The notes: a model not told the origin generated them from the letters alone. DNA of 21,309 bases from Promethearchaeota archaeon (GCA_019894975.1 JAGXNO010000050.1:1-21309), one strand, 5' to 3'; positions 1,970 through 21,308 are shown, counted from the first letter of the stretch. Numbers and translations: made by a program.

Positions 1970-3280
1970 TTATACATCTGTATTTTCAATAATCATTGCT
2001 GTTCCTTGACCACCGCCACAACACATTGTAGCGAGACCATACTTTGCCTTTTTCTCTTTGAGGATTCTTGCTAAGCTGCCAACTATTCTAGGGCCTGTTG
2101 CTGCGATTGGATGGCCAAGTGCAATTCCACCGCCTTTAACATTAACATCATCTAACCTGTCGTCTAATCCCATCTCATGAACCCAGTTAAGACCTACAAT
2201 AGCAAAAGCCTCATTAATTTCCCAAAAGGCAATATCATCAGTTGTTAATCCTGCATGTTTTAGTGCCATCCAAGATGCTGGAACCGGACCTCTCCCCATT
2301 ACAGTAGGATCAACCGCCCCATAACCAACTGAAACGATACGAGCTAACGGATCTAAATCATGTTTCTTCATAGCATCTTCTGACATTAGCAATAATGTAG
2401 CTGCTCCTGCATTTGTAGGGCATGAATTCCCTGCAGTCACTAAACCTTGTTCTGTTCCAAATTCTTTAACATATTCTTCCTTAGTCATGAGTGGTCTGTA
2501 ATATCCACCATCCCATCCAGGTTTACTTAAAGCCCTTAGATCTTTTGTTCCTTCATATGTAGCATTCTTTCTAACTGAAGTATCATGTTCTATTAATAAT
2601 GGAGTATCTTCATCACCTTCTGCATGAGCCATTATAGGGACAATTTCACCTTTGAAAAAACCTTCCTCTTGGGCTTTTCCAGCTAAGTTGTGACTGCGAA
2701 CTGAGAACCTATCATTATCTTCTTTTGTAAAAATGCCAGCATTCATTTCTGAGAGTTTTTGAGCAGTCTGTAACATTGAGTAAGAGCAGCGGAAATCAAC
2801 AACATCATCTACAAAAAGTTCATGGCCTCTCCTCATAGCTGGAGGTGTTTCTCTTACCGTTGAAGCTCTTTTTGGGTTTCTGGACATTGTCGCATTATTT
2901 TTCCCTGAAGCAATTACAACATCAGAATACCCCAAAGCAATGTTATCAAAGCCTATGGAGGCGCAAGTCATTCCTGAGCCACATTGTCTATCTAGTGCGA
3001 CAGATGATACTTTAGCGGGAAATTTAGATAAAAACAGGGGGTATCTCCCTCCAAAAGTTACATATTCAAAATTGAAATGAGTAGCTCCAATGTAAAACTC
3101 ATCTACATCTTCAGGTGTTAGTTTGCCCTTTAATCGATTGTCAAACATTTCGTTTATTGTTAAGGCAGTTAATTCATCAGGACGTAAGTTTCCAAGTACA
3201 TCTCTAGGGGGTTCTCTTGGTCGAGATCTTGAAAAAGGAGTTCTTATATAATCAGTAATGTATACATCTCTTATTTTCAT
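1970..3280 (-). CDS. Acetyl-CoA C-acyltransferase (thiolase), catalytic residues intact but loops divergent
   Basis: DRQCGSG (nucleophile Cys), EINEAFA, GGGIALGHP, MCCGGGQG. Archaeal-type N-terminus 'DYIRTPFSRSRPREPPRDV'. SD AGAGGT upstream. Confidence 0.93.
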   Translation of the reverse strand: MKIRDVYITDYIRTPFSRSRPREPPRDVLGNLRPDELTALTINEMFDNRLKGKLTPEDVDEFYIGATHFNFEYVTFGGRYPLFLSKFPAKVSSVALDRQCGSGMTCASIGFDNIALGYSDVVIASGKNNATMSRNPKRASTVRETPPAMRRGHELFVDDVVDFRCSYSMLQTAQKLSEMNAGIFTKEDNDRFSVRSHNLAGKAQEEGFFKGEIVPIMAHAEGDEDTPLLIEHDTSVRKNATYEGTKDLRALSKPGWDGGYYRPLMTKEEYVKEFGTEQGLVTAGNSCPTNAGAATLLLMSEDAMKKHDLDPLARIVSVGYGAVDPTVMGRGPVPASWMALKHAGLTTDDIAFWEINEAFAIVGLNWVHEMGLDDRLDDVNVKGGGIALGHPIAATGPRIVGSLARILKEKKAKYGLATMCCGGGQGTAMIIENTDV

Positions 3281-3320
3281 AATTTTTAAACCTCTTTTAT
3301 TTCTTTTACCTCATATTTTA

Positions 3321-4652
3321 CTAATCTAAATTTTCAATTACTACAGCAGTTCCTTGACCGCCACCGCATGACATAGCAGCGAGTCCGTATTTAGCCTTTT
3401 TCTCTTTGAGAATTCTAGCTAATGTTGTTGTGATCCTCAAACCTGTAGCGGATGCGGGATTCCCTATCGCTATTGCTCCTCCATGAATATTCATTTTATT
3501 TTCCCAATCAATCCCTAATTTTTTAGCAGCATTAAGTGCTACAACACTAAAGGATTCGTTGATTTCAAAATAATCAATATCTCCTACTGTTAAATTTGCA
3601 TGTTTTAACGCCATTTGGGATGCGGGTAACACACCTCTTCCTCTTACAGTTGGATCTACTCCGGCAAAACCAATGGAGATAACTTTCGAAATGGGTTTCA
3701 AATTGTATTCTTCTAATGCATTTTTAGATGCTATTATACATAGTGAAGCCCCATTACTTATTGGAGAGCTATTTCCTGTCGTTATTATACCCTCTTCAGT
3801 TCCAAATTTCTTAAGATATTCCTCTTTAGAAATCACAGGATTTTTATAACCACCCGCCCATCCTGGAGTACTTATAGAAGGCATGCTAGCAATATTTTCC
3901 AAAGTAACTGCTTTTTTAATAGATTGATCTGTTTCAATGTCGATTTGGGCATCAGTGTCACCTACTTCATGACCCTTAAGAGACATAATTTCCTCTTTGA
4001 AATATCCACTTTCCAAAGCTTTTTCTGCTAGGCTATGACTACGTGCACCAAATTTATCCATTTCCTCTTTCGTAACATGATCTGCTTCTTCTTCCGCGAG
4101 TTTCTGAGCTGATTGGAATAATAAACGACTCGTTTTCCAATCATATAAATCATCATTATACCATTTGTTATCCGGATCAAGCATAAGTTTATCTGGGGGT
4201 ATTCCAAATACTGTTACTTTTCCATCATAGGTATGTAGCGGAACCCGAGTAAATTGATCAAAACCAACAGAGACTACTACATCGGAATAGCCCATTGAAA
4301 TATTTGCGAAACCAACATGCAAAGTTGTCATACCAGAACCGTCTTGTCTGTCAAATACCGTCGCGGGTACATGAAAGGGAAATTTTGCCATAAAAATAGG
4401 GATTCGTCCCCCAAATGTCCCGTGCTCATGTTGTAGTAAGGCACTACCAACCAAAACCTCACTAACATCCTCACGCTTCAGCGTACTACCTTTGTTTGGT
4501 ATTCTGTTATCAAACATGTCCAATAAAGCATGAGCTGCAAGTTCTAATCCCTGCTTCTCACTAAAAACATCAGCAGCAGGATCTAGAGGATTTGCTTGAG
4601 AAAATGGTGTCCTTACATGGTCTACTAAATATACTTCTTTTGCTTCTTTCAT
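3321..4652 (-). CDS. Thiolase-fold protein lacking canonical catalytic residues (pseudo-thiolase / non-canonical thiolase)
   Basis: Full-length alignment to the two neighbouring thiolases, but DRQDGSG (C->D), NESFS, GGAIAIGNP (H->N) and MSCGGGQG (C->S at the CxGGG position). Confidence 0.9.
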   Translation of the reverse strand: MKEAKEVYLVDHVRTPFSQANPLDPAADVFSEKQGLELAAHALLDMFDNRIPNKGSTLKREDVSEVLVGSALLQHEHGTFGGRIPIFMAKFPFHVPATVFDRQDGSGMTTLHVGFANISMGYSDVVVSVGFDQFTRVPLHTYDGKVTVFGIPPDKLMLDPDNKWYNDDLYDWKTSRLLFQSAQKLAEEEADHVTKEEMDKFGARSHSLAEKALESGYFKEEIMSLKGHEVGDTDAQIDIETDQSIKKAVTLENIASMPSISTPGWAGGYKNPVISKEEYLKKFGTEEGIITTGNSSPISNGASLCIIASKNALEEYNLKPISKVISIGFAGVDPTVRGRGVLPASQMALKHANLTVGDIDYFEINESFSVVALNAAKKLGIDWENKMNIHGGAIAIGNPASATGLRITTTLARILKEKKAKYGLAAMSCGGGQGTAVVIENLD

Positions 4653-4760
4653 ATTTCATTTTCTCTTTTTTGTTTAAAATATATAGAATATAATGTTGAA
4701 ATTTATCGATTGAATAAATATTTTCAGATGATCAGAAATAGGCAGGATTTCTATCTTTAA

Positions 4761-4790
4761 GAAAAAAGAAATTAGAAAAAAAATAAGAAA
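4761..4790 (-). terminator. Oligo-T tract, candidate archaeal terminator after the crotonase gene
   Basis: Minus strand reads TTTCTTATTTTTTTTCTAATTTCTTTTTTC just after the stop codon. Confidence 0.45.
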
Positions 4791-4792
4791 TA

Positions 4793-5575
4793 TTACTTCC
4801 CCTTAAATACTGGTTTACGTTTTTCAACAAAAGCCGTAGCTGCTTCTCTATGATCCTCCGAAGCATAACATTTGGCATTAAATTCACTTTCAACGTTTAA
4901 CATTTCAGCAAATAATTTATCGTAACCTCTATTTACTGCTTCCTTGGAAAGGGCTAATGCAATAGGTGCTTGGTCTGCTAGATGATTCGCAAATTCCATT
5001 GTTTTTGGTAATAATTCTTCAGGGGGAAATACAGCATTTACTAAGCCAATCTTCATAGCCTCCTCAGCGAAAATACGTTTACCACTAAAAATAAGCTCCT
5101 TTGCTTTATGAATACCTATAAATTTGGGGAGCAGGAAACTCCCATTCATATCGGGAATTAATCCCATACGAATAAAGAATTCCCCAAAACTCGCTTTTTC
5201 TGAGGCATAAATGATATCGCAACTTAGAGTTAAATTGGTTCCAAATCCAACGGCTACACCATTTACAGCGGCAATAATGGGCTTGTATAAACGGAAGAAA
5301 TCATAAGGGTGTATAGTCACCCTACCTCCTGCGATTTCTTCCCTAAATTTACCACTCGCAAATTCCTGTACATCTGCTCCTGCACAAAATGCTTTTCCTG
5401 CTCCAGTGATAACTATTGCTCTCACATCAGAATCTTCTTTGGCTACCTTTAGAGAATTTTTCAAATCAGCATTCATCTGTACATTGATTGCGTTCATTCT
5501 TTCAGGACGATTAAGTGTAATTAATGCCACCATACCTTTTTTCTCATAAATAATTGTCTCATATTCAGGACTCAT
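4793..5575 (-). CDS. Enoyl-CoA hydratase/isomerase (crotonase) family protein, PaaG-like isomerase type
   Basis: 'ITLNRPERMNA', 'AFCAGADV', 'AAVNGVAVGFG', 'GLIPD', C-terminal 'AFVEKRKPVFKGK'. The two hydratase Glu positions are N and F. Start re-called at ATG 5575 (MSPEYE), behind SD GAAGGTG. Confidence 0.9.
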   Translation of the reverse strand: MSPEYETIIYEKKGMVALITLNRPERMNAINVQMNADLKNSLKVAKEDSDVRAIVITGAGKAFCAGADVQEFASGKFREEIAGGRVTIHPYDFFRLYKPIIAAVNGVAVGFGTNLTLSCDIIYASEKASFGEFFIRMGLIPDMNGSFLLPKFIGIHKAKELIFSGKRIFAEEAMKIGLVNAVFPPEELLPKTMEFANHLADQAPIALALSKEAVNRGYDKLFAEMLNVESEFNAKCYASEDHREAATAFVEKRKPVFKGK

Positions 5576-5793
5576 AACAAATAACACCTTCAAACTAATT
5601 CTGTTAATAATATGTTAGTTTTTACTTTGTATTAATTAAAATTGATTATTGGACTATTTAATTCTTTTTTGGATAATTGGAAAAACAGCGCAACAGTAGT
5701 TATCAAGTTAAAAAATAAAATTTTATTATCATCCCAATTTAAATAAACTATTAACTATATTTTGACCAAAAAAAAAATATATGATGATAAAAA

Positions 5794-6921
5794 ATGAGTG
5801 AAGCTGAATATCAAAAAGCTCTTAAGATTTTATTTAAATCAGGAGGATTTCAATTCCCCTTCTCAGAAACTATACATGAAATTCTAAAAATAACTATTAA
5901 AGATGAAAACCTAGATTTCATGATGGCTTTTGAAAACCAGAAATCTCAAACTATGGAACAATTAAAGGAGAGTAGTGGATTATCTGAAGAAGAAATCTTA
6001 AAAAAAGCGGATGCTTTAGCAAAAATGGGGGTAATAATTAACCAACCTAATACTCAAGGGGTTATGGTATATCAAATGTTTCCGTTTCACAGGCAGTTTG
6101 AATACATATTTATGAAAAACCTTGAAAAAACAGAGGAAAATTATAAGCTAGCAAAGTTATTCTATAAATTGAATGAAGAACATAGCGATATAGTCCAATC
6201 TCAATATGATGGATATAGTGCTGCATTGAATCGTATGCCACCAATGGATCGTACAGTACCCATATTAGAAAATTTGGAAACAGGTGAAGAGATTAATATT
6301 ATCGTAAATGAAGAATTAGAAGTTCCTAAGGAAAAAATATTACCCGCTCAAAAAATTAGAGAACTTATTGAAAAATATGATGATATTGCAGTAGGTAACT
6401 GCTATTGTCGTCAACATCAAGAATTCTTGGATAATCCCTGTAAGATGATCGATCTTATACCAAGTTGTATGACTTTAGGGAAATCAGCAAGACATACTTC
6501 TAATCACGGTTTCTCTAAATTAGTGTCTAAAGAAGAAGCTTTAGAAATCCTTAAAAAATGTGAAGATGCGGGATTAGTCCATAAAGCTTATCATAAATAC
6601 GGTAATTCTTCAGCCGAGGAAGTCGCAATCTGTAATTGTTGCAATTGTTGTTGCATGACTGCTCGAGATTGCTTAATTTTTCCTGTAGTCAATGAAACTA
6701 ATTATCTAGCTGAAATTGATGAAGATTTATGTATAGGATGTGGTACTTGCGTAGATCTATGCTATAATAAAGCAATTTCGTTAAATGATGATGATAAAGC
6801 AGAAAGAATTGAAGAATTCTGTGCGGGATGTGGTGTGTGTGCTTATCATTGCTCTGAAAATGCAATTTCTCTTGTGGAAGGACCAAGGATGGTAAGAATG
6901 CTCCCTCCACGTAAAAACTAA
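5794..6921 (+). CDS. Cys-rich Fe-S protein: N-terminal winged-helix-like segment, CxCR and ICNCCxCCC motifs, C-terminal 2x[4Fe-4S] ferredoxin domain
   Basis: CIGCGTCVDLC and CAGCGVCAYHC ferredoxin motifs; GNCYCRQ; ICNCCNCCCM. 20 Cys in total. Confidence 0.88.
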   Translation: MSEAEYQKALKILFKSGGFQFPFSETIHEILKITIKDENLDFMMAFENQKSQTMEQLKESSGLSEEEILKKADALAKMGVIINQPNTQGVMVYQMFPFHRQFEYIFMKNLEKTEENYKLAKLFYKLNEEHSDIVQSQYDGYSAALNRMPPMDRTVPILENLETGEEINIIVNEELEVPKEKILPAQKIRELIEKYDDIAVGNCYCRQHQEFLDNPCKMIDLIPSCMTLGKSARHTSNHGFSKLVSKEEALEILKKCEDAGLVHKAYHKYGNSSAEEVAICNCCNCCCMTARDCLIFPVVNETNYLAEIDEDLCIGCGTCVDLCYNKAISLNDDDKAERIEEFCAGCGVCAYHCSENAISLVEGPRMVRMLPPRKN

Positions 6922-7076: not shown

Positions 7077-7913
7077 TTATTCTACAATGGCATATGCGTT
7101 CCCAAGTACAACTGGACCTCGGTCAGTTCGTAATTGAATGATATAACGACCATTATCTTTCCAACCTTCAGTCGTAAGGGTTTCTCCCGGGAACACAACG
7201 TCTTTGAATCTTGCACTGAATTCTTTAAACCGAGAAACATCCCCATCACATAACTCATTTACAATAGCACGTGTAGCAATCCCGTATGTACATAATCCAT
7301 GAAGGATTGGTTTTGGTTGACGTGCCATTTTCGCAAAATTTGGATCGATATGCAGTGGATTAAGATCTCCATTTAGTCTATAATATGCTGCTTGATTGGG
7401 ACTGGTTTGATAAGAACTGCTAAAATCTGGTTCTACACCTTCGGGAGGATTAATTGGCTCAGTTTTTGGTCCTGGATCCCCTCCAAAACCTCCTGAACCG
7501 GCAACGAAAAAGACATACTTCGTATCAAAGATATGCTCGCCTTCTAACGAATGTCCGGATACTTTTGTATGGATGAGAGCTGCTTTACCTTTACCTTTAT
7601 CGTATATATGTTCTATGACACCTTTTGTTTTTATGGTTCCACTTGGTTTAAATGGAACATAAACTCGGATTAATTGCTCACCATGTAATAAACGGACATA
7701 ATCAGTTCCTTGAGGGAAAAGCATTCCGCTCCCCGCTACTATCGTTGCAAAACTGGGAAATACTTTCATCCCGCCTTGTACTCTTTCATAAACAAAGGAT
7801 AAATCTTCTGCTTGTGCCCCAATTCCCAAATTATACAAGGCAATCCTTTTCCAATCATACTCAAATGTTCCTTCTTTTGTTTGTCCTACTGAATCTAATT
7901 CTATTTTTGACAT
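7077..7913 (-). CDS. (R)-specific enoyl-CoA hydratase 2 (MaoC double hot-dog, MFE-2 hydratase-like), copy 2
   Basis: Hydratase-2 motif YRLNGDLNPLHIDP (D-x4-H), PILHGLCTYG, LLHGEQ, YDKGKG, GSGGFGG, VFPGETL. Confidence 0.93.
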   Translation of the reverse strand: MSKIELDSVGQTKEGTFEYDWKRIALYNLGIGAQAEDLSFVYERVQGGMKVFPSFATIVAGSGMLFPQGTDYVRLLHGEQLIRVYVPFKPSGTIKTKGVIEHIYDKGKGKAALIHTKVSGHSLEGEHIFDTKYVFFVAGSGGFGGDPGPKTEPINPPEGVEPDFSSSYQTSPNQAAYYRLNGDLNPLHIDPNFAKMARQPKPILHGLCTYGIATRAIVNELCDGDVSRFKEFSARFKDVVFPGETLTTEGWKDNGRYIIQLRTDRGPVVLGNAYAIVE

Positions 7914-8047: not shown

Positions 8048-8887
8048 TTACTCTACAACAGCGTATGCACTACCTAAAACTGTTGCTCTTTCAGTTTTTA
8101 CTTGGATTATATAGCGTCCGTCATCTTTCCAGCCTTCTGTTGTCAAAGTTTCACCAGGATATACTTCGCTAGTAAATCTTGCTTTAAATTCTTTAAAACG
8201 TGAAACATCTCCATCACAAAGACCATATACTATAGCTCGAGTTGCATGACCATAAGTACATAGTCCATGAAGGATTGGTCTATCAAATCTTCCACTTCTC
8301 TTAGCAAATACAGGATCTAAATGTAAAGGGTTGTAATCGCCACTTAGCCTATAGATAGCAGCTTGATTTATATTGGTTTTATATGATACACTAAAATCTG
8401 GTTCTTTTCCCTCAGGAGGATCTAATGGTTCAGCTTTAGGGCCACGATCTCCACCCCAACCACCTTCATTTATATAGAAATGAACATATTTAGCATCAAA
8501 AATGTGTTCACCATCAGGAGTTCTACCCGACATTCTAGTATGAATAACAGCTGCTTTCCCCTTATCAAACATATTTTCGCATACTCCTTTAACTTTGATT
8601 TCTCCTTCGGACGGAAAGGGCTTAACGAGTTTTATCATTTGTTCCCCATGAATAAATCGAGCGCCATCAACAGGTTTGTCGCTAAGTTTTGGGAATCCTA
8701 CTCCCGCGAGAATACATGCATAACTCGGGAAAACTTGTACTCCTCCAGGATATCGCTCATAAACAAACTTAAGCTCATCTGGTTGAGCACCAATCCCGAG
8801 ATTATAGAGTATTACGTCTTTCCAAGTATATTTAATAGTTCTTTCTTCAGTTTCTTTACCAATTACATCTAAATTTAAACTTGTCAT
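8048..8887 (-). CDS. (R)-specific enoyl-CoA hydratase 2 (MaoC double hot-dog, MFE-2 hydratase-like), copy 1
   Basis: YRLSGDYNPLHLDP, PILHGLCTYG, FIHGEQ, FDKGK, EGGWGG, VYPGETL. SD GGTGAGGAG upstream. Confidence 0.93.
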   Translation of the reverse strand: MTSLNLDVIGKETEERTIKYTWKDVILYNLGIGAQPDELKFVYERYPGGVQVFPSYACILAGVGFPKLSDKPVDGARFIHGEQMIKLVKPFPSEGEIKVKGVCENMFDKGKAAVIHTRMSGRTPDGEHIFDAKYVHFYINEGGWGGDRGPKAEPLDPPEGKEPDFSVSYKTNINQAAIYRLSGDYNPLHLDPVFAKRSGRFDRPILHGLCTYGHATRAIVYGLCDGDVSRFKEFKARFTSEVYPGETLTTEGWKDDGRYIIQVKTERATVLGSAYAVVE

Positions 8888-9069: not shown

Positions 9070-10011
9070 TTAAGGATTATTTAATTCATCTTGGCTAACA
9101 GCACCTTCCCGTTTAGAAGGTAAGTCTTTCATTAGTTCTGGCATTCTATCAGCTAATTGTTGAGTAGTAAATGGTTTCCAATCGTTTGATATTTTCTTTA
9201 CAGCCCTCCAACCACGATAAACCCACACTTTATCTGCAATAGCTCTAAAAACTTCTCCATTAATCCCTTTAGCCTCATCAGTAGCAAGATATGCTACGAT
9301 AGGAGCAAAATGAGATGGATGAAAGATATCAAAACCGTCTGGTGTTTTTGCTTTCATATAGTCACCCATTCTAGGAGTCAAATCAGTTGTCATACGAGTT
9401 CGTGCACTTGGAACTACACAATTCACAGTAGCGTATTTTGCAAGCTCTCTAGAAACTATTACTGAGAAAGTTGCTATTCCTGATTTAGCGGCACCGTAAT
9501 TTGATTGACCTACATTTCCAAATAATCCAGAATCAGAAGCGGTATTTATAATTCTACCAAAATTTCCTAATGATTCATCAGCTTTACCCCTTTCTCTAAA
9601 GTAAGAAGCAGCATGCCTGGTTAAATTAAATGTTCCCTTCATATGGACAGCAATAACAAGATCAAACTCTTCTTCTGCCATATTAAATATCATTCTGTCG
9701 CGTAAAATTCCCGCATTGTTTACTACGATATCTAATTTGCCAAATTCAGAAATAGCTTGATCTATCATAGCCTTAGTTTTATTGTAATCAACTACAGAGT
9801 CGTAATTCCCTATTGCTTTAACTCCAAGAGCTTTACATTCATCAACGACAGTATCAGCAATTTTAGCATCTTTATCCAGATGGCTAGCTCCACCGCCAAT
9901 ATCATTAATTACTAAATTACATCCTTCTTTTGCCATAAGTAATGCTTCTTCACGGCCTACACCACGACCAGCACCAGTTATTATGGCAACTTTTCCGTCT
10001 AACATTCCCAT
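9070..10011 (-). CDS. SDR-family NAD-dependent oxidoreductase, 3-hydroxyacyl-CoA dehydrogenase of MFE-2/HSD17B4-like type
   Basis: TGAGRGVG Rossmann motif, INDIGG, NNAGILRDR, VHMKGTF, GRIINTAS, GLFGNVGQSNYGAAK (YxxxK). Confidence 0.92.
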   Translation of the reverse strand: MGMLDGKVAIITGAGRGVGREEALLMAKEGCNLVINDIGGGASHLDKDAKIADTVVDECKALGVKAIGNYDSVVDYNKTKAMIDQAISEFGKLDIVVNNAGILRDRMIFNMAEEEFDLVIAVHMKGTFNLTRHAASYFRERGKADESLGNFGRIINTASDSGLFGNVGQSNYGAAKSGIATFSVIVSRELAKYATVNCVVPSARTRMTTDLTPRMGDYMKAKTPDGFDIFHPSHFAPIVAYLATDEAKGINGEVFRAIADKVWVYRGWRAVKKISNDWKPFTTQQLADRMPELMKDLPSKREGAVSQDELNNP

Positions 10012-10194: not shown

Positions 10195-11472
10195 TTACGC
10201 ATCAAGGTTTTCTATGACTGTTGCCACACCTTGACCGCCACCAACGCAAGCGTTAGCAACACCGTATTTAGCCTTTTTGTCTTTTAATATCCTTGCTAAA
10301 GTTCCTGCAAGTCTAATCATAGTAGAACCTAATGGATGGCCAATCGCAGTTGATCCTCCCATTACATTAACCTTTTCCATTGGGATGTTGAACTTATCCA
10401 TACAATTCAGAGCTACTATGCAAAAAGCTTCATTAATTTCCCAGTAATCGATATCATCTGCTGTCAATCCTGCGTATTCTAATGCTTTCTTAGTAGCAGG
10501 GACTGGCCCTCTTCCCATAGTTGATGGATGAACTCCTGCCCACCCAATAGATCTAATTCTCGCCATAGGTTCAAGGCCTCTCTTTTTTGCTTCTTCAGCC
10601 GTCATTGACACTGCTGCTGTAGCACCTGCATTTAAAGGAGAGGAATTTCCTACAGTTATAACACCTTGGTCTGTTCCTTCTCTTTTAACATATCCATCTT
10701 TGCCACCATTCTTCTCTAAGTAGAATGGTTGTGATAACCTCGGTAATTTTGCATGTCCTTCCATAGACGAAGCTCTTACATTCATATCCTTGTCAACAAT
10801 TAGAGGAGTATTCACATCTCCAGCTACATGTCCCTCGATTGGTATGATTTCACCTTTGAACCATCCGTCTTCCTGACTTTTAACAGCTAGATTGTGGCTT
10901 CTAACACCTATCTCGTCTAAATTTTCCTTGGTAAATGTAGGTACTTCTTCTTCATAAAGTTTCTGAGCAGTTTGAAGCATATTGAATGATGTTTGCATTT
11001 CTAGATCAGGCCGATAAAATTCGCTATTCTTATCCAACAATTTTAAATTTGGTTCAGTTCCTCGCCCTCTGACTCTAGTCATATGTTCAAAACCTGTCGC
11101 TAATACAGCTTTAGAAATTCCAGTCATTAATTCCATGATACCAACATGCATTCCTGAACCTGCTGAACCACATTGTCTATCAATGAAAAATGCTGGTACA
11201 TTTACAGGGAAACCAGCTAAAAAGATAGGGAGTCGTCCTCCATATGTCCAATTCTCTAAAACACCTGCAGCAACTCCTACTGATACTTCATCCATGTGTC
11301 CTCTTTCTATGCCTTTATCAGCTAGCCTTCCATCAAAGAATTTATTTAATAATTTTGCTAATAATTCGTCTCCCCTAATTTCTCCAAAAACATCTCTTTC
11401 AGGTTGTTTTCCCCTTGAACGAGAGAAAGCGGTACGCGCATAATCAATTAACCATACTTCTTTTAAATCCAT
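10195..11472 (-). CDS. fadA: Acetyl-CoA C-acyltransferase (3-ketoacyl-CoA thiolase), canonical
   Basis: DRQCGSA, GFEHMTRV, EINEAFC, GGSTAIGHPLG, ACVGGGQG. All catalytic motifs are canonical. Confidence 0.94.
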   Translation of the reverse strand: MDLKEVWLIDYARTAFSRSRGKQPERDVFGEIRGDELLAKLLNKFFDGRLADKGIERGHMDEVSVGVAAGVLENWTYGGRLPIFLAGFPVNVPAFFIDRQCGSAGSGMHVGIMELMTGISKAVLATGFEHMTRVRGRGTEPNLKLLDKNSEFYRPDLEMQTSFNMLQTAQKLYEEEVPTFTKENLDEIGVRSHNLAVKSQEDGWFKGEIIPIEGHVAGDVNTPLIVDKDMNVRASSMEGHAKLPRLSQPFYLEKNGGKDGYVKREGTDQGVITVGNSSPLNAGATAAVSMTAEEAKKRGLEPMARIRSIGWAGVHPSTMGRGPVPATKKALEYAGLTADDIDYWEINEAFCIVALNCMDKFNIPMEKVNVMGGSTAIGHPLGSTMIRLAGTLARILKDKKAKYGVANACVGGGQGVATVIENLDA

Positions 11473-13943: not shown

Positions 13944-15095
13944 ATGATATTGGAGAAAAATTTAAAGATTCATGGTTTTTGTGATGAGCAATTTGAACCA
14001 GTTAAAAAAGTCTTTTTAGAAAATTTTAAGTCTGGTTTGGAAGTAGGTGCTTCTCTTGCTATTACAATAAATGGTAAGTATGTTTTAGATATTTGGGCGG
14101 GCTTTGCTGATGAGGACCAAACAAAGCCATGGGAAGAAGAAACAATAGTTAATGTATATTCTACAACAAAAGTGATGACTACACTTTGTGTTCTCATGCT
14201 TGTAGATAGGAATCTCATTGACTTAGATGCACCCATCGCTAATTATTGGCCTGAATTCAAACAAGCAGGAAAGGAAGAGATTCCTGTTCGTTATCTTCTT
14301 AGCCATACGGCAGGACTCCCTGGTTTTGACCAACGGATTCAACCAGAAACACTTTATGATTGGGATCGGTGTACAAGTCTTTTAGCTGCCCAAAAACCAT
14401 GGTGGGAACCTGGAACTAAAAATGGATATCACTCTATAACATTTGGTTATCTTTTGGGTGAATTGGTTCGACGTGTTTCAGGCAAAAGTCTTGGTACATT
14501 TTTTCGAGAGGAGGTTGCAATACCACTTAAAGCTGATTTCCATATAGGATTGCTTGAAGAACACGATTCCCGGGTTGCGGGATTGATTCCACCTATTCCG
14601 CCAGTACCCCAAAATACCGGTAAAGTTGATCCAAATTCAATACCTGTTCGAGTATTTTCGAATCCCATTCTGACATCAAGAGAAACTTTAACACGTGAAT
14701 GGAGAGCTGCGGAAATTCCCGCTTCAAATGGGCATGGTAATGCTAGATCCATAGCAAGAGTAGGATCAGCATTAGCTTGTGGTGGTGAACTTGATGGTGT
14801 GAAATTACTTTCATTAAATACAATCGAAAAAGCTATTGAAGAACAATCATATAATACTGATTTAGTTCTTAGTAAACCTATTCGCTTTGGCTTAGGTTTT
14901 GGTCTTGTTAGTAAAGAAATGCCAATCAGCCCAAATCCCAGATCTTTTTACTGGCAAGGATGGGGGGGCTCACATCTTACTATGGATCTTGATGCTAAAA
15001 TGAGCTGGGCATATGCTATGAATAGGATGGTGATGTCTCTAACTGGAGACCCTCGTACTATGAAATTGCGAAAAGAAATTAACAAAGTTCTATAA
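13944..15095 (+). CDS. Beta-lactamase-fold serine hydrolase (family VIII esterase / EstA-like)
   Basis: SxxK motif 'YSTTK', 'LDAPIANYWPEF', 'LLSHTAGL', 'PWWEPG...GYHSITFG', 'EIPASNG', 'GWGGS'. No signal peptide. Confidence 0.92.
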   Translation: MILEKNLKIHGFCDEQFEPVKKVFLENFKSGLEVGASLAITINGKYVLDIWAGFADEDQTKPWEEETIVNVYSTTKVMTTLCVLMLVDRNLIDLDAPIANYWPEFKQAGKEEIPVRYLLSHTAGLPGFDQRIQPETLYDWDRCTSLLAAQKPWWEPGTKNGYHSITFGYLLGELVRRVSGKSLGTFFREEVAIPLKADFHIGLLEEHDSRVAGLIPPIPPVPQNTGKVDPNSIPVRVFSNPILTSRETLTREWRAAEIPASNGHGNARSIARVGSALACGGELDGVKLLSLNTIEKAIEEQSYNTDLVLSKPIRFGLGFGLVSKEMPISPNPRSFYWQGWGGSHLTMDLDAKMSWAYAMNRMVMSLTGDPRTMKLRKEINKVL

Positions 15096-16163: not shown

Positions 16164-17063
16164 TTACTCAGTTTCAACCAATGAGTCATTAGGCATTAAA
16201 ATCCATGTTTCTCTAATTTTTTTCCTACTTCTTAATTCATCCAATTTATGTCGTGGAATATGTGCTAAAAATTTTGTTGAACTTAATTGACCAGAGGATA
16301 TTTCTACTTTTTTATGTACATCTAAGCCACATTTTTTAAAAAAAATTTCCGCCGACTTAAAATTCTCAAATTTATTTTCTTCTACTTGGTGTTCTGCTAT
16401 AAATCTTCTTCCCTTCTCGTCATAGAAGCCATTTGTGATTGGTTCTTGGGTTTCTTTCTTTATATAGACATCTGCCGTAATCCAATAACCACCTTTTTCT
16501 CTTAATAAATCATAGATGATTGAACAAACTCTTCGTTTTTGATCTTCATTAAGATAAACCAATAATCCTTCATTTACGATTGCAACCGGACCAGTAGGAA
16601 AGCGATTTATTGTTTCGGCAAAGTCATTTTTATCTAACACATTCAATGCCTGCAGGAATAAATTATCTGTTGGATAATCACAAAAATTTTTAGTCAGTTC
16701 CAGTAAAATTCCCTTTTTACTTTCAATTATTTCCGGCAGATCTGTATCTATATAAAAAACTCTGGGATCCTTGCACATACTTAAACCACGAAAAGAAAAG
16801 CCAGATGATAATTCAATGATGTTTTTTATCCCAATTTCAATTAACGCCTTATCAATAGATGAATACCTTTTTTCAAAATGAAGAAGTCTCATCAAGAAAC
16901 CAATTGATGATAATTTTTCTTGTGGGTATTGTATGTTTTTAACACCCCAAATCAATGCTGCCGCTTCTTTTGCAAAAGGAATAGTTGTTAATGCTTTTGT
17001 TAAAAGTAGCGATTTAGCAGAAGAACTGATTGACTCAAAACGGGGATTTAATGAATCTTTCAT
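16164..17063 (-). CDS. Putative class I SAM-dependent methyltransferase (LCM/TcmP-like)
   Basis: Motif I-like 'IIELSSGFSFRG', motif II-like 'YIDTDLPEII', 'LNVLD', 'IVNEGLLVYL', 'GGYWITAD'. Confidence 0.75.
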   Translation of the reverse strand: MKDSLNPRFESISSSAKSLLLTKALTTIPFAKEAAALIWGVKNIQYPQEKLSSIGFLMRLLHFEKRYSSIDKALIEIGIKNIIELSSGFSFRGLSMCKDPRVFYIDTDLPEIIESKKGILLELTKNFCDYPTDNLFLQALNVLDKNDFAETINRFPTGPVAIVNEGLLVYLNEDQKRRVCSIIYDLLREKGGYWITADVYIKKETQEPITNGFYDEKGRRFIAEHQVEENKFENFKSAEIFFKKCGLDVHKKVEISSGQLSSTKFLAHIPRHKLDELRSRKKIRETWILMPNDSLVETE

Positions 17064-17179: not shown

Positions 17180-18679
17180 CTAAATAATACCCTCCCATGC
17201 TACTCTTTCATTTCCATAGGGATCTTGTTCGATTGTCACTTCCTTATCAAAAAGTATTGTAGCTCTATTTTCTTTATCATAGGGAGGTAATTCTGGAATA
17301 TTTTCATGATTTGGGTTACCTGAACGAGCAAATGCAATCCAAGTATCCATCATTTGTTCTGATAATCTCTGAGTTTCTTCAGTTCTGCCTGGAAAAAATC
17401 CAATATCTCTGTCCCCAAAAAGACCGAATACAAAAGGAAGTTCAAGAGCATGCATTGCACCAAATTTTCCCCCACCCAAAGGACTCTGCCAAGTGAAAAG
17501 ATACATGTAAATATTCTTTTGATGTTTGGATTGTTCTTCAGCAAGACGAATAGAAGGTATCCGAAACGTAAAATCTGTTAATATTGCATCCGTGATATTT
17601 CTTGGTGTTTTTCTTAATTCTCGATACCTATCTATTATCTCTTTAGCTTTACTTTCTTTCTGCTTTGTAAATCTCATAAATGTATTTACTGTTTTATGTA
17701 ATCTTTCCTCTGAAAGCTCGAAAGCCTTTGGATTCCACATTAAAAACATTTTGTTTTCATCCAAATTTGATCCGATGAATACATCAATATCTTTAGCATC
17801 ACCTTTAGATATGGCTTCTAGTGGGTGAACTGGTAAAGTACTTTTTTCTATAACTGGTCCCACTCTTAATCCACTTGCTCGGAATTCTGTCATATCCATC
17901 TGTGGTACAATAAAATTTTCAGCTGGAGATTTCCGTAATGCTTCTATATTTCCTTTTTCAACACCCAATTTTTGAATCAATTCTTCATAAACTTTAATCG
18001 CAGAAACAGGATTATAACTGAATTTATTTGCGGCTCCAGATTGGGGGATTGCTCTATGAAACAATCCCTTCGCTGAAGGCGTAGCAAGTAAGGTAGAAAC
18101 AGCCATACCACCAGCGGATTCCCCAAAAATAGTGACATTATTAGGATCTCCTCCAAACTTTTGGATATTCTCTTTTACCCATTCAAGTGCTGCAACCATA
18201 TCAAGTATTCCCGCATTAGCAGTCGTATCAGGCATATCTGGCATATATAAAAAACCAAGATATCCAAGACGATAATTAATGCTAACTACAACCACGTCCC
18301 CCCTAAAAACTAGCCGCGTTCCATCTAAGGAAGCACCACTTCCTGTAGTAAATCCACCCCCATGAATCCAAAACATAACTGGCCTCTTACCAATATCTAA
18401 TCCTTGCGTCCATATATTTAAAGTTAAACATTCAGCTTCACTCTGAGGCATAGGTTCTCCAAATTGTGCTTCGAGGAGTGAAGGAGGCTGAATTGAAACA
18501 GGACTATAATTTGTTGCATCAAGTACATCACTCCAAGGCTCAACAGGAGCTGGAGGTTTGAAACGAAGATTTCCTTTAGGTGGGGCAGCATAAGGAATAC
18601 CCTTAAATTTGAACACACCTCTTCGACTATATCCCCTTACTATACCATTTGTTGTTTCTACTATAACATCTTCTCCCAT
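17180..18679 (-). CDS. Type-B carboxylesterase (PnbA/COesterase family), copy 2
   Basis: FKGIPYAAPP.GNLRF, ECLTLNIW, WIHGGGF, NYRLG, FGESAGG (Ser), GSNLDE (Glu), MHALEL (His). Start ATG 18679 or 18688. Confidence 0.94.
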   Translation of the reverse strand: MGEDVIVETTNGIVRGYSRRGVFKFKGIPYAAPPKGNLRFKPPAPVEPWSDVLDATNYSPVSIQPPSLLEAQFGEPMPQSEAECLTLNIWTQGLDIGKRPVMFWIHGGGFTTGSGASLDGTRLVFRGDVVVVSINYRLGYLGFLYMPDMPDTTANAGILDMVAALEWVKENIQKFGGDPNNVTIFGESAGGMAVSTLLATPSAKGLFHRAIPQSGAANKFSYNPVSAIKVYEELIQKLGVEKGNIEALRKSPAENFIVPQMDMTEFRASGLRVGPVIEKSTLPVHPLEAISKGDAKDIDVFIGSNLDENKMFLMWNPKAFELSEERLHKTVNTFMRFTKQKESKAKEIIDRYRELRKTPRNITDAILTDFTFRIPSIRLAEEQSKHQKNIYMYLFTWQSPLGGGKFGAMHALELPFVFGLFGDRDIGFFPGRTEETQRLSEQMMDTWIAFARSGNPNHENIPELPPYDKENRATILFDKEVTIEQDPYGNERVAWEGII

Positions 18680-18751
18680 TTTTATCATCTTCCATAATAG
18701 ATTTTTAAATAAAATAAAACATTTTTTTAATAAATATTTAAATTAAATATT

Positions 18752-20251
18752 CTATAAAATACCTTCCCAAGAAATCCTTTCATTTCCAAAAGGATCTTGC
18801 TGAATCGAAACCTCCTTATCAAAAATAATAGTTGCTCTTTTTTCTTGATCATAAGGAGGTAATTCTGGAATATTTTTATGATTAGGATTCCCAGAACGCG
18901 CAAAATTAATCCAAGCATCCATCATTTTTTCCGATAATTCTAAAGTTTCTTTAGTTTTACGGGGAAATATACCAACATCTCGATCAAGAAGAATTCCGAA
19001 TACAAATGAAAGCTCAAGAGCATGCATTGCCCCGTATTTCCCTCCCTCCCAGGGAGTTTTCCAAGAAAATAAGTACATATAAGTATTCTTATTGTGTTGA
19101 GATTGTGCTTCAGCAAGACGAATGGAAGGAATACGAAATTGATAATCAGTATTTATTGCATCAAAGATATCCTTTGGAGTTTTTCTTAGATTTTTATAAA
19201 CCTCAATGAGTTCTTTAGATTTTATTTCATTTTGATTTACTAATCGCATTATACCATTAACTCTTCTCTCTAATCTTTCTTCAGTAAAATCGTCTTCCCC
19301 CGAGACCCAAACAGACCAAAGTTTAGTCTCGTCAAAATTAGAGCCTACAAATAAATCTATATCCTTGGCAAAACCGTTTTTAACAGCTTCATAAGGATTT
19401 TCGGGTAAAGTATCTTCATCAATCGTTGGAGTAAAACTTAATACATCCTGTCCAGCATTCTCGAAACTGGCTAATTTCTCAATAATCTTTTCATAAGGAA
19501 GTTTCCTTAAAGATTCTATATCTCCTCTTTCAATTCTTAACCTTTCAGTTAAAGTCTCATAGATTTTTATCCCAGTTGAAGGTTGGCAACTAAAATTGGT
19601 TACATAACCAGATTGAACAATAGCTCTTTTAAACAATCCTTTTGCAGACGGCGTAGCAAGTAGACTATGTACCGCAAAAGCTCCCGCAGATTCACCAAAA
19701 ATTGTTATTTCTTCAGGATTTCCTCCAAAACGGTTTATGTTTTCTCTTACCCATTTGAGTGCTTCAACCATATCAAGTAGCCCTATATTCGCAGATGTAT
19801 CCGGTACATCAGGCATATACAAAAATCCAAAAGGACCAAGTCGGTAATTAATACTTACAACCACTACATCTCCCCTTAAAACTAAACGTGAACCATCCAA
19901 AGCTCGTCCACTGCCAGTTCGAAATGCACCTCCATGAATAAAAAACATTACTGGACGTTTCTCATCATTGAGTTTTTGTGTCCATATGTTCAATGTTAAT
20001 GAGTCAGCTTCGTTCTGAGGAAATGGGTCTGAAAACATTTCTTCTAGTGCAGATGGAGGTTGAGGACAAACTGGACTATACATTGTTGCATCACGGATAT
20101 CATCCCAAGGTTTAATCGAGACTGGTGGTTTGAAACGTAAATTCCCTATAGGTGGTTCCGCATAAGGAATTCCCTTAAATTTTGTAACACTTCTGTTTGA
20201 ATATCCTCTCACACTGCCTGATGATGTTTTTACTATATCATTCTCTTCCAT
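18752..20251 (-). CDS. Type-B carboxylesterase (PnbA/COesterase family), copy 1
   Basis: FKGIPYAEPP.GNLRF, FIHGGAF, NYRLG, FGESAGA, GSNFDE, MHALEL. Start ATG 20251 (GTGAT SD) or GTG 20260. Confidence 0.94.
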   Translation of the reverse strand: MEENDIVKTSSGSVRGYSNRSVTKFKGIPYAEPPIGNLRFKPPVSIKPWDDIRDATMYSPVCPQPPSALEEMFSDPFPQNEADSLTLNIWTQKLNDEKRPVMFFIHGGAFRTGSGRALDGSRLVLRGDVVVVSINYRLGPFGFLYMPDVPDTSANIGLLDMVEALKWVRENINRFGGNPEEITIFGESAGAFAVHSLLATPSAKGLFKRAIVQSGYVTNFSCQPSTGIKIYETLTERLRIERGDIESLRKLPYEKIIEKLASFENAGQDVLSFTPTIDEDTLPENPYEAVKNGFAKDIDLFVGSNFDETKLWSVWVSGEDDFTEERLERRVNGIMRLVNQNEIKSKELIEVYKNLRKTPKDIFDAINTDYQFRIPSIRLAEAQSQHNKNTYMYLFSWKTPWEGGKYGAMHALELSFVFGILLDRDVGIFPRKTKETLELSEKMMDAWINFARSGNPNHKNIPELPPYDQEKRATIIFDKEVSIQQDPFGNERISWEGIL

Positions 20252-20265
20252 TATAATCACATTTT

Positions 20266-20829
20266 CTATTTTTTTTGTTTTGGTTTAAATATAATTGATG
20301 GTCCAAACTTTTCATGATATTGAAATCCTTCAGCTTCAATATTTTTACCATATTTTTTGTGTAATTTATCCATGGGCCCTACATCCAAAGCATACATAGG
20401 ACAAGATTCAACACAAATTGCTTGCTTATCATCGTCTAATCTTTCTACACATAGTTGGCATTTTCTCATTTTTGCATTTTCAGTTGAATTGAATTGAGGG
20501 GCATCCCAAGGACACACTTTTAAGCATTTTGATCCACATTCAGTCTTGCCCAAACATACATTTTGATCCACTATAACAATCCCATCTATTTCTCTTTTGG
20601 TTATAGCATTTACAGGGCAACCTTTAATACACGGAGGATCAGCACAATGATTACACGCTATAGCAAGGTAAGAAAGAGATAAGTTTGGGAACTTTCCTTT
20701 TTCAATTGGAATTATACGCATCCAATTTTCTGGTCCTGCTTCAATATTATACCAGTCCTTACAGGAAACCGAACATGTATAACAACCAGTACATCTTGTT
20801 TGATCGAAATAAAAACCCATTTGTTTCAT
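20266..20829 (-). CDS. dmsB: 4x[4Fe-4S] electron-transfer subunit (DmsB-like)
   Basis: MKQMGFYFDQTRCTGCYTCSVSCKD, CNHCADPPCIKGC, CLGKTECGSKCLKVC, CQLC...CVESC. Start re-called at ATG 20829, an ATGA overlap with the upstream stop. Confidence 0.92.
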   Translation of the reverse strand: MKQMGFYFDQTRCTGCYTCSVSCKDWYNIEAGPENWMRIIPIEKGKFPNLSLSYLAIACNHCADPPCIKGCPVNAITKREIDGIVIVDQNVCLGKTECGSKCLKVCPWDAPQFNSTENAKMRKCQLCVERLDDDKQAICVESCPMYALDVGPMDKLHKKYGKNIEAEGFQYHEKFGPSIIFKPKQKK

Positions 20830-21308
20830 GATAAGTCCCCCGAATTCTTTTTTGAAAATAGTTCTACTTGAACAAGTGCACTGTTCATCGGAAAAGCACC
20901 TCCAGGAGAACGCGAATCTTTTGTTAGAACATTCCCACATCCTCCAATATCAACACCGTCTTTATTTGGATTATACCATGCACCTTGATAAACTACCACA
21001 ACTCCAGGAATCACACGTTCTGTAACATTAGCGGGGATACGAACTTTACCCCTATCGTTGAACGTGTCGACTAGATCTCCTTGCTCAATCCCTCTTGGTT
21101 CAGCATCTATAGGATTTATCCATACCATATGTGGTTCTACTTCTTCTAACCATGGGATCATACTAATACTTGAATGAGTTCTTCTTTTATTATGGGGTGT
21201 CAGTAGCTGTAATGGATACTTTTTCGCTAAAGGGGCATCATAATGCTCTTCATGACTTAGATATTTAGGAATTGGTGGCATATTTGGGATACCTAGCTCA
21301 TCCATGTG
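20826..21308 (-). CDS. dmsA: DmsA/YnfE-like molybdopterin oxidoreductase catalytic subunit, C-terminal domain (5'-truncated by window edge)
   Basis: 'YPLQLLTPH..RRTHS', 'VWINPIDAEPRGI', 'FNDRG', 'VTERVIPGVV', 'QGAWY.P...GVDIGGCGNVLT', 'NSALVQVE'. Frame is open to the window edge. Confidence 0.88.
   Translation of the reverse strand, partial: HMDELGIPNMPPIPKYLSHEEHYDAPLAKKYPLQLLTPHNKRRTHSSISMIPWLEEVEPHMVWINPIDAEPRGIEQGDLVDTFNDRGKVRIPANVTERVIPGVVVVYQGAWYNPNKDGVDIGGCGNVLTKDSRSPGGAFPMNSALVQVELFSKKNSGDLS

Follow-up and report, generated by a model that had tools for sequence, protein, structure and literature searches.

Textbooks describe true thiolases (EC 2.3.1.9 and 2.3.1.16) as homo-oligomers in which every subunit has an active site. 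Elsewhere in the catabolism of CoA esters, ChsH1-ChsH2, ChsE4-ChsE5, BbsCD and PqsBC are reportedly heteromers of an active and an inactive paralogue, with a single active site per dimer. To our knowledge, these are a MaoC hydratase, an acyl-CoA dehydrogenase, an SDR and a FabH-like enzyme, respectively, and none is a thiolase I or II; they share with the gene pair described here the logic of a duplicated enzyme with one degenerate subunit. A trypanosomatid SCP2-thiolase-like protein is also said to have a thiolase fold that lacks the conserved catalytic fingerprints. Five such fingerprints are recognised in thiolases (CxS, VMG, NEAF, GHP and CxG), and they are not conserved in Mycobacterium smegmatis TLP1, a thiolase-fold protein with no thiolase activity (PMC3406046). 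TLP1 is a monomer with an additional C-terminal domain; its identity to thiolases is just ~15%, and it lacks an active paralogue as a fixed neighbour.

By analogy, the closest functional counterpart of our pair would be the KS-alpha/KS-beta (KS/CLF) heterodimer of type II polyketide biosynthesis. KS and CLF are also adjacent paralogues of the thiolase superfamily, one of which lacks the catalytic Cys and is held under selection as a dimer partner, a role that we can only predict for the protein studied here. They are members of the ketosynthase branch, their substrates are bound to ACP, and the conserved Gln of CLF aids decarboxylative priming. In contrast, our pair belongs to the CoA-thiolase family (Thiolase_N/Thiolase_C), has Asp or Trp, Ala or Ser rather than Gln at the Cys position, and involves no ACP. 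Another comparison is offered by the steroid side-chain retro-aldolases Ltp2-ChsH2(DUF35) and Sal-Shy, whose thiolase-fold subunits also have no nucleophile and are encoded in beta-oxidation-like clusters with MaoC hydratases. Ltp2 and Sal, both of the SCP2-thiolase type, depend on a DUF35 partner and employ the catalytic positions anew for aldol cleavage (PMC12329534).

Here we describe an Asgard archaeal thiolase pair within a 21,309-nucleotide stretch of a Promethearchaeota archaeon genome (GCA_019894975.1, JAGXNO010000050.1:1-21309; hereafter the window). One member, the pseudo-thiolase, has the fold, loop domain and N-beta-3 dimer strand of canonical homodimeric or homotetrameric thiolases (Zoogloea ramigera 1DM3, Clostridium acetobutylicum 4N45 and FadA 1WDK/3GOA), and differs from them in that four of the five fingerprints are lost and in that it is always paired with an intact paralogue. 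Since its gene lies directly upstream of this intact sister, the likeliest reading is that it forms the non-catalytic half of a two-subunit thiolase. That it is the non-catalytic subunit of an obligate heteromer comparable to KS/CLF, found so far only in Asgard archaea, seems to us probable, although well short of certain. A full-text literature search on heteromeric, heterodimeric, inactive or pseudo-thiolases retrieved nothing relevant; the principle is familiar, and we found no description of it within true thiolases.

Table 1. Features of the window, with positions counted from its first nucleotide; coordinates preceded by L007 refer to that locus
Feature	Position	Strand	Remarks
Molybdopterin oxidoreductases of the DMSO-reductase family (two different)	2-1745; 20266-21308; L007:12770-15615	+; -	flank the cluster, each with a four-cluster Fe-S subunit
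Active partner thiolase	1970-3280	-	436 aa; Cys100, Asn356, His390, Cys420 and VMG kept
Spacer between the pair genes	3281-3320	-	40 bp; two GAGGT (Shine-Dalgarno-like) motifs
Pseudo-thiolase	3321-4652	-	443 aa, thiolase fold; Asp104/Asn398/Ser428 for Cys/His/Cys, VRG for VMG, NESF for NEAF
Ser428 codon TCA	3369-3371	-	position of Cys378 (CxG)
Asn398 codon AAT	3459-3461	-	position of His348 (GHP)
Arg337 codon	3642-3644	-	position of Met288 (VMG); R, M, Q, I or W across the pseudo clade
Asp104 codon GAC	4341-4343	-	position of nucleophile Cys89
Spacer upstream of the pseudo-thiolase	4653-4792	-	140 bp, AT-rich; TATA-like stretch ~25-35 nt before the ATG
Enoyl-CoA hydratase (crotonase)	4793-5593	-	directly upstream of the pseudo-thiolase; frequent, not invariant neighbour
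375-aa protein	5794-6921	+	known-domain match only in the C-terminal ferredoxin region; divergent from the crotonase and thiolase genes
MFE-2-type hydratase	7077-7913	-	conserved module beside the pair
MFE-2-type hydratase	8048-8887	-	same module
SDR	9070-10011	-	same module
Canonical thiolase	10195-11472	-	same module and gene cluster, separate clade; C/N/H/C, GFEHMTR; comparison sequence
Beta-lactamase-family serine hydrolase	13944-15095	+	
299-aa ORF	16164-17063	-	no Pfam match
Type-B carboxylesterase	17180-18688	-	first of a tandem pair
Type-B carboxylesterase	18752-20260	-	second of the tandem pair

Catalytic positions of the pseudo-thiolase

The window contains three thiolase genes, all on the minus strand (Table 1). 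One of them had been described in an earlier note, made from the sequence alone, as encoding a full-length thiolase-fold protein with three catalytic residues replaced, and this description held. The 443-aa frame is uninterrupted, and the product exceeds the Pfam cut-offs for Thiolase_N (88.9 bits) and Thiolase_C (121.3 bits) and reaches 281 bits with the NCBIfam subfamily model TIGR01930, whose cut-off is 240. It is 46-48% identical to the active thiolases of the same window, far from the ~15% of TLP1, and its best sequence matches to canonical thiolases reach E = 1e-52. An AlphaFold2 monomer model, which served for fold assignment only (mean pLDDT only 65, and less than 50 in the loops of the interface, the insertion and the catalytic site), gave best matches to solved thiolases with TM scores of 0.63-0.77.

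The protein was aligned with its neighbour, with the third thiolase of the window and with the C. acetobutylicum thiolase (4n45/4n44). These alignments place Asp104, Asn398 and Ser428 opposite Cys88/89, His348 and Cys378, so that the nucleophile (Cys89 of CxS), the oxyanion-hole His (GHP) and the acid/base Cys (CxG) are all absent; Cys429, at the 'x' of CxG, remains. The altered fingerprints read DGS, VRG, GNP and SCG, while the NEAF fingerprint keeps its Asn (Asn316 of the reference thiolase) and reads NESF, with Ser in the place of Ala. Codons and alignments thus agree with the three substitutions that the earlier note had listed, as well as with its NESF, its GFDQF for GxEHM and its surviving Cys. 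Two details required correction. The note had counted two base changes for two of the swaps, but Cys to Ser takes one non-synonymous change, the other difference in TCA being synonymous. The change in GxEHM is real, but this motif is not one of the five recognised fingerprints and aligns with residues 114-119 of the solved thiolase (PMC3406046). The alignments also revealed two changes that the note had not reported: Met288 of the VMG fingerprint is Arg337, and the position of the CoA-phosphate residue Arg220 is occupied by Lys246.

Assignment to the Ltp2/Sal type of aldolase was rejected, because there is no DUF35 gene on the contig and the protein, at 19.7 bits, falls short of the 28 bits required by Thiolase_C_1, the SCP2-type model of Pfam. 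DUF35 (OB_ChsH2_C) is absent from the contig and from the related loci, and the four matches in the genome all lie on other contigs. The pseudo-thiolase belongs to another Pfam family than Ltp2 and Sal, and its residues at the catalytic positions vary between subclades.

Homologues, selection and the fate of the active site

Searching 5.8 billion protein clusters gave ~35 homologue clusters that are 55-94% identical to the pseudo-thiolase and come without exception from bins of Asgard archaea or from sediment metagenomes. A profile built on the most divergent members contributed just one more pseudo-type cluster (P0123, with S/D/L/S), for a total of ~36, and no bacterial members. Cys/His/Cys occurs in none of these clusters, including the close orthologues in which strain-specific decay would have left it. 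The catalytic positions are occupied by Asp and Asn together with Ser, Pro or Ala in 30 sequences, by Trp/Asn/Ser in one subclade, by Ala/Glu/Thr in one sequence and by Ser/Leu/Ser in two, and the Asn of NEAF has become Asp in all three divergent groups. As to the Asp/Asn/Ser pattern, whose conservation the earlier note had proposed to examine, Asp104 and Asn398 are invariant in 30/30 sequences of the main subclade, and the deeper subclades have the other combinations; Cys429 is nearly invariant.

Pairwise Nei-Gojobori dN/dS was 0.08-0.17 for the pseudo-thiolase and 0.05-0.12 for its partner, and the Asp, Asn and Ser codons differ synonymously between species. Among 20 species, the codon for residue 104 is GAC in ten, GAT in eight, TGG in one and GCG in one, and that for Ser428 is TCA, TCG, TCT or AGT. 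On these two grounds, purifying selection acts on the pseudo-thiolase, if a little less strongly than on its active sister. Nothing beyond the loss of the catalytic residues speaks for a decaying pseudogene, a strain-specific loss or a sequencing error, and all three are refuted by the residues of the homologues, the dN/dS values and the same substitutions being written with different synonymous codons; the frame is also intact in more than 30 independent assemblies, and we regard the chance of such an origin as negligible. The earlier argument that this is a selected protein, with dN/dS below 1, is thereby borne out.

Of the 107 alignment columns with at least 90% conservation in the canonical clade as well as in the partner clade, the pseudo clade retains 86. 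Among the 21 others, which have changed or drifted, are the three catalytic residues, the NEAF Ala, an N-terminal Arg-Ser-Arg (RSR) motif and the equivalents of Met157, Met288 and Arg220. Met157 and Met288 line the acyl/pantetheine pocket, and Arg220 contacts the CoA phosphate in solved thiolases. These three positions and the RSR motif are invariant in all active relatives and have drifted in the pseudo clade only. Conversely, just seven residues are peculiar to the pseudo clade and conserved throughout it, and all except Asn398 lie outside the catalytic fingerprints. The Ser247 equivalent, the GNSS pantetheine loop and most of the loop domain are largely kept, and the protein may for this reason still bind some ligand.

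Two of the roles that the earlier note had offered, a thiolase-fold enzyme with different chemistry and an acyl-CoA sensor, are to be weighed against this pattern. In the first, a new active site would have arisen in the main subclade from Asp104 together with Asn398, Ser428 and Cys429, perhaps one in which a carboxylate nucleophile or base acts on a thioester, making the protein a hydrolase, transferase, decarboxylase or retro-aldolase that works before or after the active thiolase in the pathway. The invariance of Asp104 and Asn398 in the 30 main-subclade members despite dS of ~1 and the near-invariance of Cys429 fit such an enzyme, and Sal and Ltp2 provide a precedent for thiolase-fold proteins with repurposed catalytic positions (PMC12329534). 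However, in sister subclades whose genes are arranged alike, residue 104 is Trp, Ala or Ser, residue 398 can be Glu or Leu and the NEAF Asn has become Asp; the Arg220 equivalent and the RSR motif have drifted, Asn398 is the sole clade-wide specific residue in a catalytic fingerprint, and the cluster has no DUF35 partner. We consider new chemistry improbable.

In the second, the protein would not be a constitutive structural subunit but would still bind CoA or acyl-CoA and exert allosteric control over the neighbouring thiolase or some other protein. There are well-known cases of pseudoenzymes regulating their active paralogues (PMC5201418, PMC10211241), and the kept GNSS pantetheine-loop region and loop domain would suit a sensor. 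Against this, the Arg220, Met157 and RSR positions vary only where the active site has been lost, a Pfam domain search found no DNA-binding or signalling domain in the pseudo-thiolase, and a one-to-one tandem arrangement suits a stoichiometric partner better than a regulator; this role too strikes us as unlikely. Both alternatives are thus disfavoured by the variation of the catalytic positions between subclades and by the drift of the CoA site. The losses look like those expected for a subunit in which substrate binding and turnover have ceased while folding and pairing remain necessary, rather than for a new active site or a sensor, which favours the first option of the earlier note, a non-catalytic subunit.

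One sequence, P0106, appeared to be an evolutionary intermediate, with an intact nucleophile Cys alongside GNP and SCG. Identity to the pseudo-thiolase of the window is 93% over its last 83 residues and only 31-45% over the rest, its first 360 residues resembling a distant canonical thiolase. It was set aside as most likely an assembly chimera, the ENA contig being only 2.1 kb long (2108 bp). Separately, a 78%-identical pseudo-thiolase fragment was found on a 2.6-kb contig (G073:C408, locus L029) of a genome assigned to another family, which may reflect mis-binning or gene transfer.

The active sister and the predicted heteromer

The gene immediately downstream encodes a thiolase with a complete catalytic apparatus. 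Its clade has peculiarities of its own, namely GKNNATM for GxEHMTR, a Cys (Cys287) at the Ser247 position and a fixed His68-Phe69-Asn70 in a segment of the predicted interface. The GxEHM motif is changed in both members of the pair, which also have insertions in common that are absent from the canonical clade. In a maximum-likelihood tree of 117 full-length relatives, the 35 pseudo sequences formed one clade (SH-aLRT 99) and the 21 partner sequences another (100), and the two clades were sisters (96), with the clade of the third, canonical thiolase lying apart from both. The contigs that encode the deepest pseudo-type sequences (P0037 and P0038) also encode the deepest partner-type ones (P0040 and P0047), which points to a single tandem duplication followed by joint divergence of the pair.

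The two genes are adjacent, co-oriented, one active and one inactive, and inherited together, as are those for KS and CLF. Starting from the pseudo-thiolase, a partner-type gene followed on the same strand after ~30-60 bp in 22/22 untruncated loci, and a reverse search from four partner-type proteins found a pseudo-type gene directly upstream in all five places. At one locus (L010), the pair is intact although every other neighbour differs. Across 400 genomes of the phylum, the pseudo-thiolase was present in 17, two of them with the gene at a contig end, and the partner clade in 15, all 15 of which also encode the pseudo-thiolase; in the window's genus, the pair occurs in 14 or 15 of 53 species. 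One genome of this genus (G225; loci L054 and L060; see also locus L008) has two pairs, an Asp-type and a Trp-type, in different neighbourhoods, and two complete pairs in one genome suggest that the putative heteromer has diversified for two substrates.

In the window, one of the GAGGT motifs of the intergenic spacer ends 9 nt before the ATG of the partner, an arrangement consistent with co-transcription of the pair. The upstream spacer may hold a promoter for the pair alone, and several genomes have the pair without the upstream crotonase.

Structure prediction was compatible with pairing of the two proteins. Judged against a mark that was reached by 58 of 80 solved complexes and by 2 of 110 mismatched pairs, the model of pseudo-thiolase and partner passed with a score of 0.96 (best of three controls, 0.00), a pass that, given the abundance of thiolase homodimers among solved structures, would reflect only likeness to or compatibility with these homodimers and not a preference for the hetero over the homo pair. 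The runs agreed in at least 91% of contacts, with a pLDDT of at least 92 for the partner. The predicted interface is the classical tight-dimer interface of thiolases, in which the strand just before the nucleophile pairs with its counterpart. Conservation of this interface did not significantly exceed that of the remaining residues in either the pseudo clade (p = 0.06) or the partner clade (p = 0.57), and so its conservation adds no support for a heteromer.

The same unremarkable conservation would suit a protein that is tied to the pathway as an independent scaffold or homodimer, unbound to the neighbouring thiolase and perhaps binding the hydratases, the Fe-S protein or the molybdenum enzyme, all of which, with the SDR, are conserved around the pair in most genomes. 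Yet the active thiolase is the only invariant neighbour, and L010 lacks all other genes of the cluster. We give a scaffold of this kind little credence, and prefer a heteromeric thiolase.

On that preferred reading, an ancestral Asgard thiolase gene would have duplicated in tandem, the downstream copy keeping its full catalytic apparatus. The upstream copy would have given up the Met288 fingerprint along with three catalytic residues (the nucleophile, the acid/base Cys and the oxyanion-hole His), and its CoA-binding residues would have drifted, while it retained the fold and the dimerisation surface. Both proteins would be made from one transcript and would assemble into the tight dimer that is usual for thiolases, here as an alpha-beta pair or possibly alpha2beta2, and each dimer would have a single working active site. 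The dead subunit would act as a structural partner and may shape the pocket of the active subunit; that it makes room for a bulky substrate receives no direct support, as the partner retains both Met157 and Met288. The complex would then cleave a 3-oxoacyl-CoA thiolytically, or condense one, within a beta-oxidation-type gene cluster.

A counterpoint is that the invariant Asp104 and Asn398 of the main subclade (30/30) could be a sign of a specific role. In that subclade, the 'dead' subunit might even be a second, non-thiolytic catalyst within the heteromer, using its carboxylate for acyl transfer, hydrolysis or decarboxylation, in a two-activity machine of an anaerobic Asgard pathway linked to a cytoplasmic molybdenum enzyme. 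We think this very unlikely.

Gene neighbourhood and implications

In most genomes, the thiolase pair belongs to a conserved cluster with a molybdopterin oxidoreductase and its Fe-S subunit and often a crotonase. A canonical thiolase, an SDR, the 375-aa Fe-S protein, which is rich in Cys, and one or two hydratases of the MFE-2 type belong to it as well. The pathway of this cluster is beta-oxidation-like. A full-length orthologue of the molybdopterin oxidoreductase has 754 residues and is probably cytoplasmic, as it has an N-terminal Cys motif and no Tat signal. A molybdenum enzyme adjoins the pair in most loci of the Asp type; the one beside the Trp-type pair is different (31% identical). The serine hydrolase and the two carboxylesterases nearby hint that the cluster may process an ester-linked substrate.

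If the heteromer is real, the KS/CLF principle would reach CoA-dependent thiolases too, in the form of a conserved alpha/beta enzyme with one degenerate subunit, and there would be a clean natural system in which to study the role of the second subunit of a thiolase dimer. Asgard archaea are much discussed for their lipid and fatty-acid metabolism. Because pseudo-thiolases are labelled in databases as 'acetyl-CoA C-acyltransferase' and are thus mis-annotated as active enzymes, metabolic reconstructions of these archaea would overcount thiolases by one for each pair-bearing genome. The pair is also a marker of a conserved, uncharacterised beta-oxidation-type cluster with MFE-2-like hydratases, a dehydrogenase, a crotonase and a cytoplasmic molybdenum enzyme.

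Further observations concern the other genes around the pair. Zinc-ribbon (DZR) genes near two related loci were considered as a conserved third partner and discarded, being unrelated to each other and to the 299-aa ORF of the window. The two adjacent MFE-2-type hydratases are double-hot-dog paralogues that are ~60% identical across genomes, and may themselves form a heteromer. The 375-aa protein is kept beside the pair at 69-91% identity in nearly all genomes of the genus.
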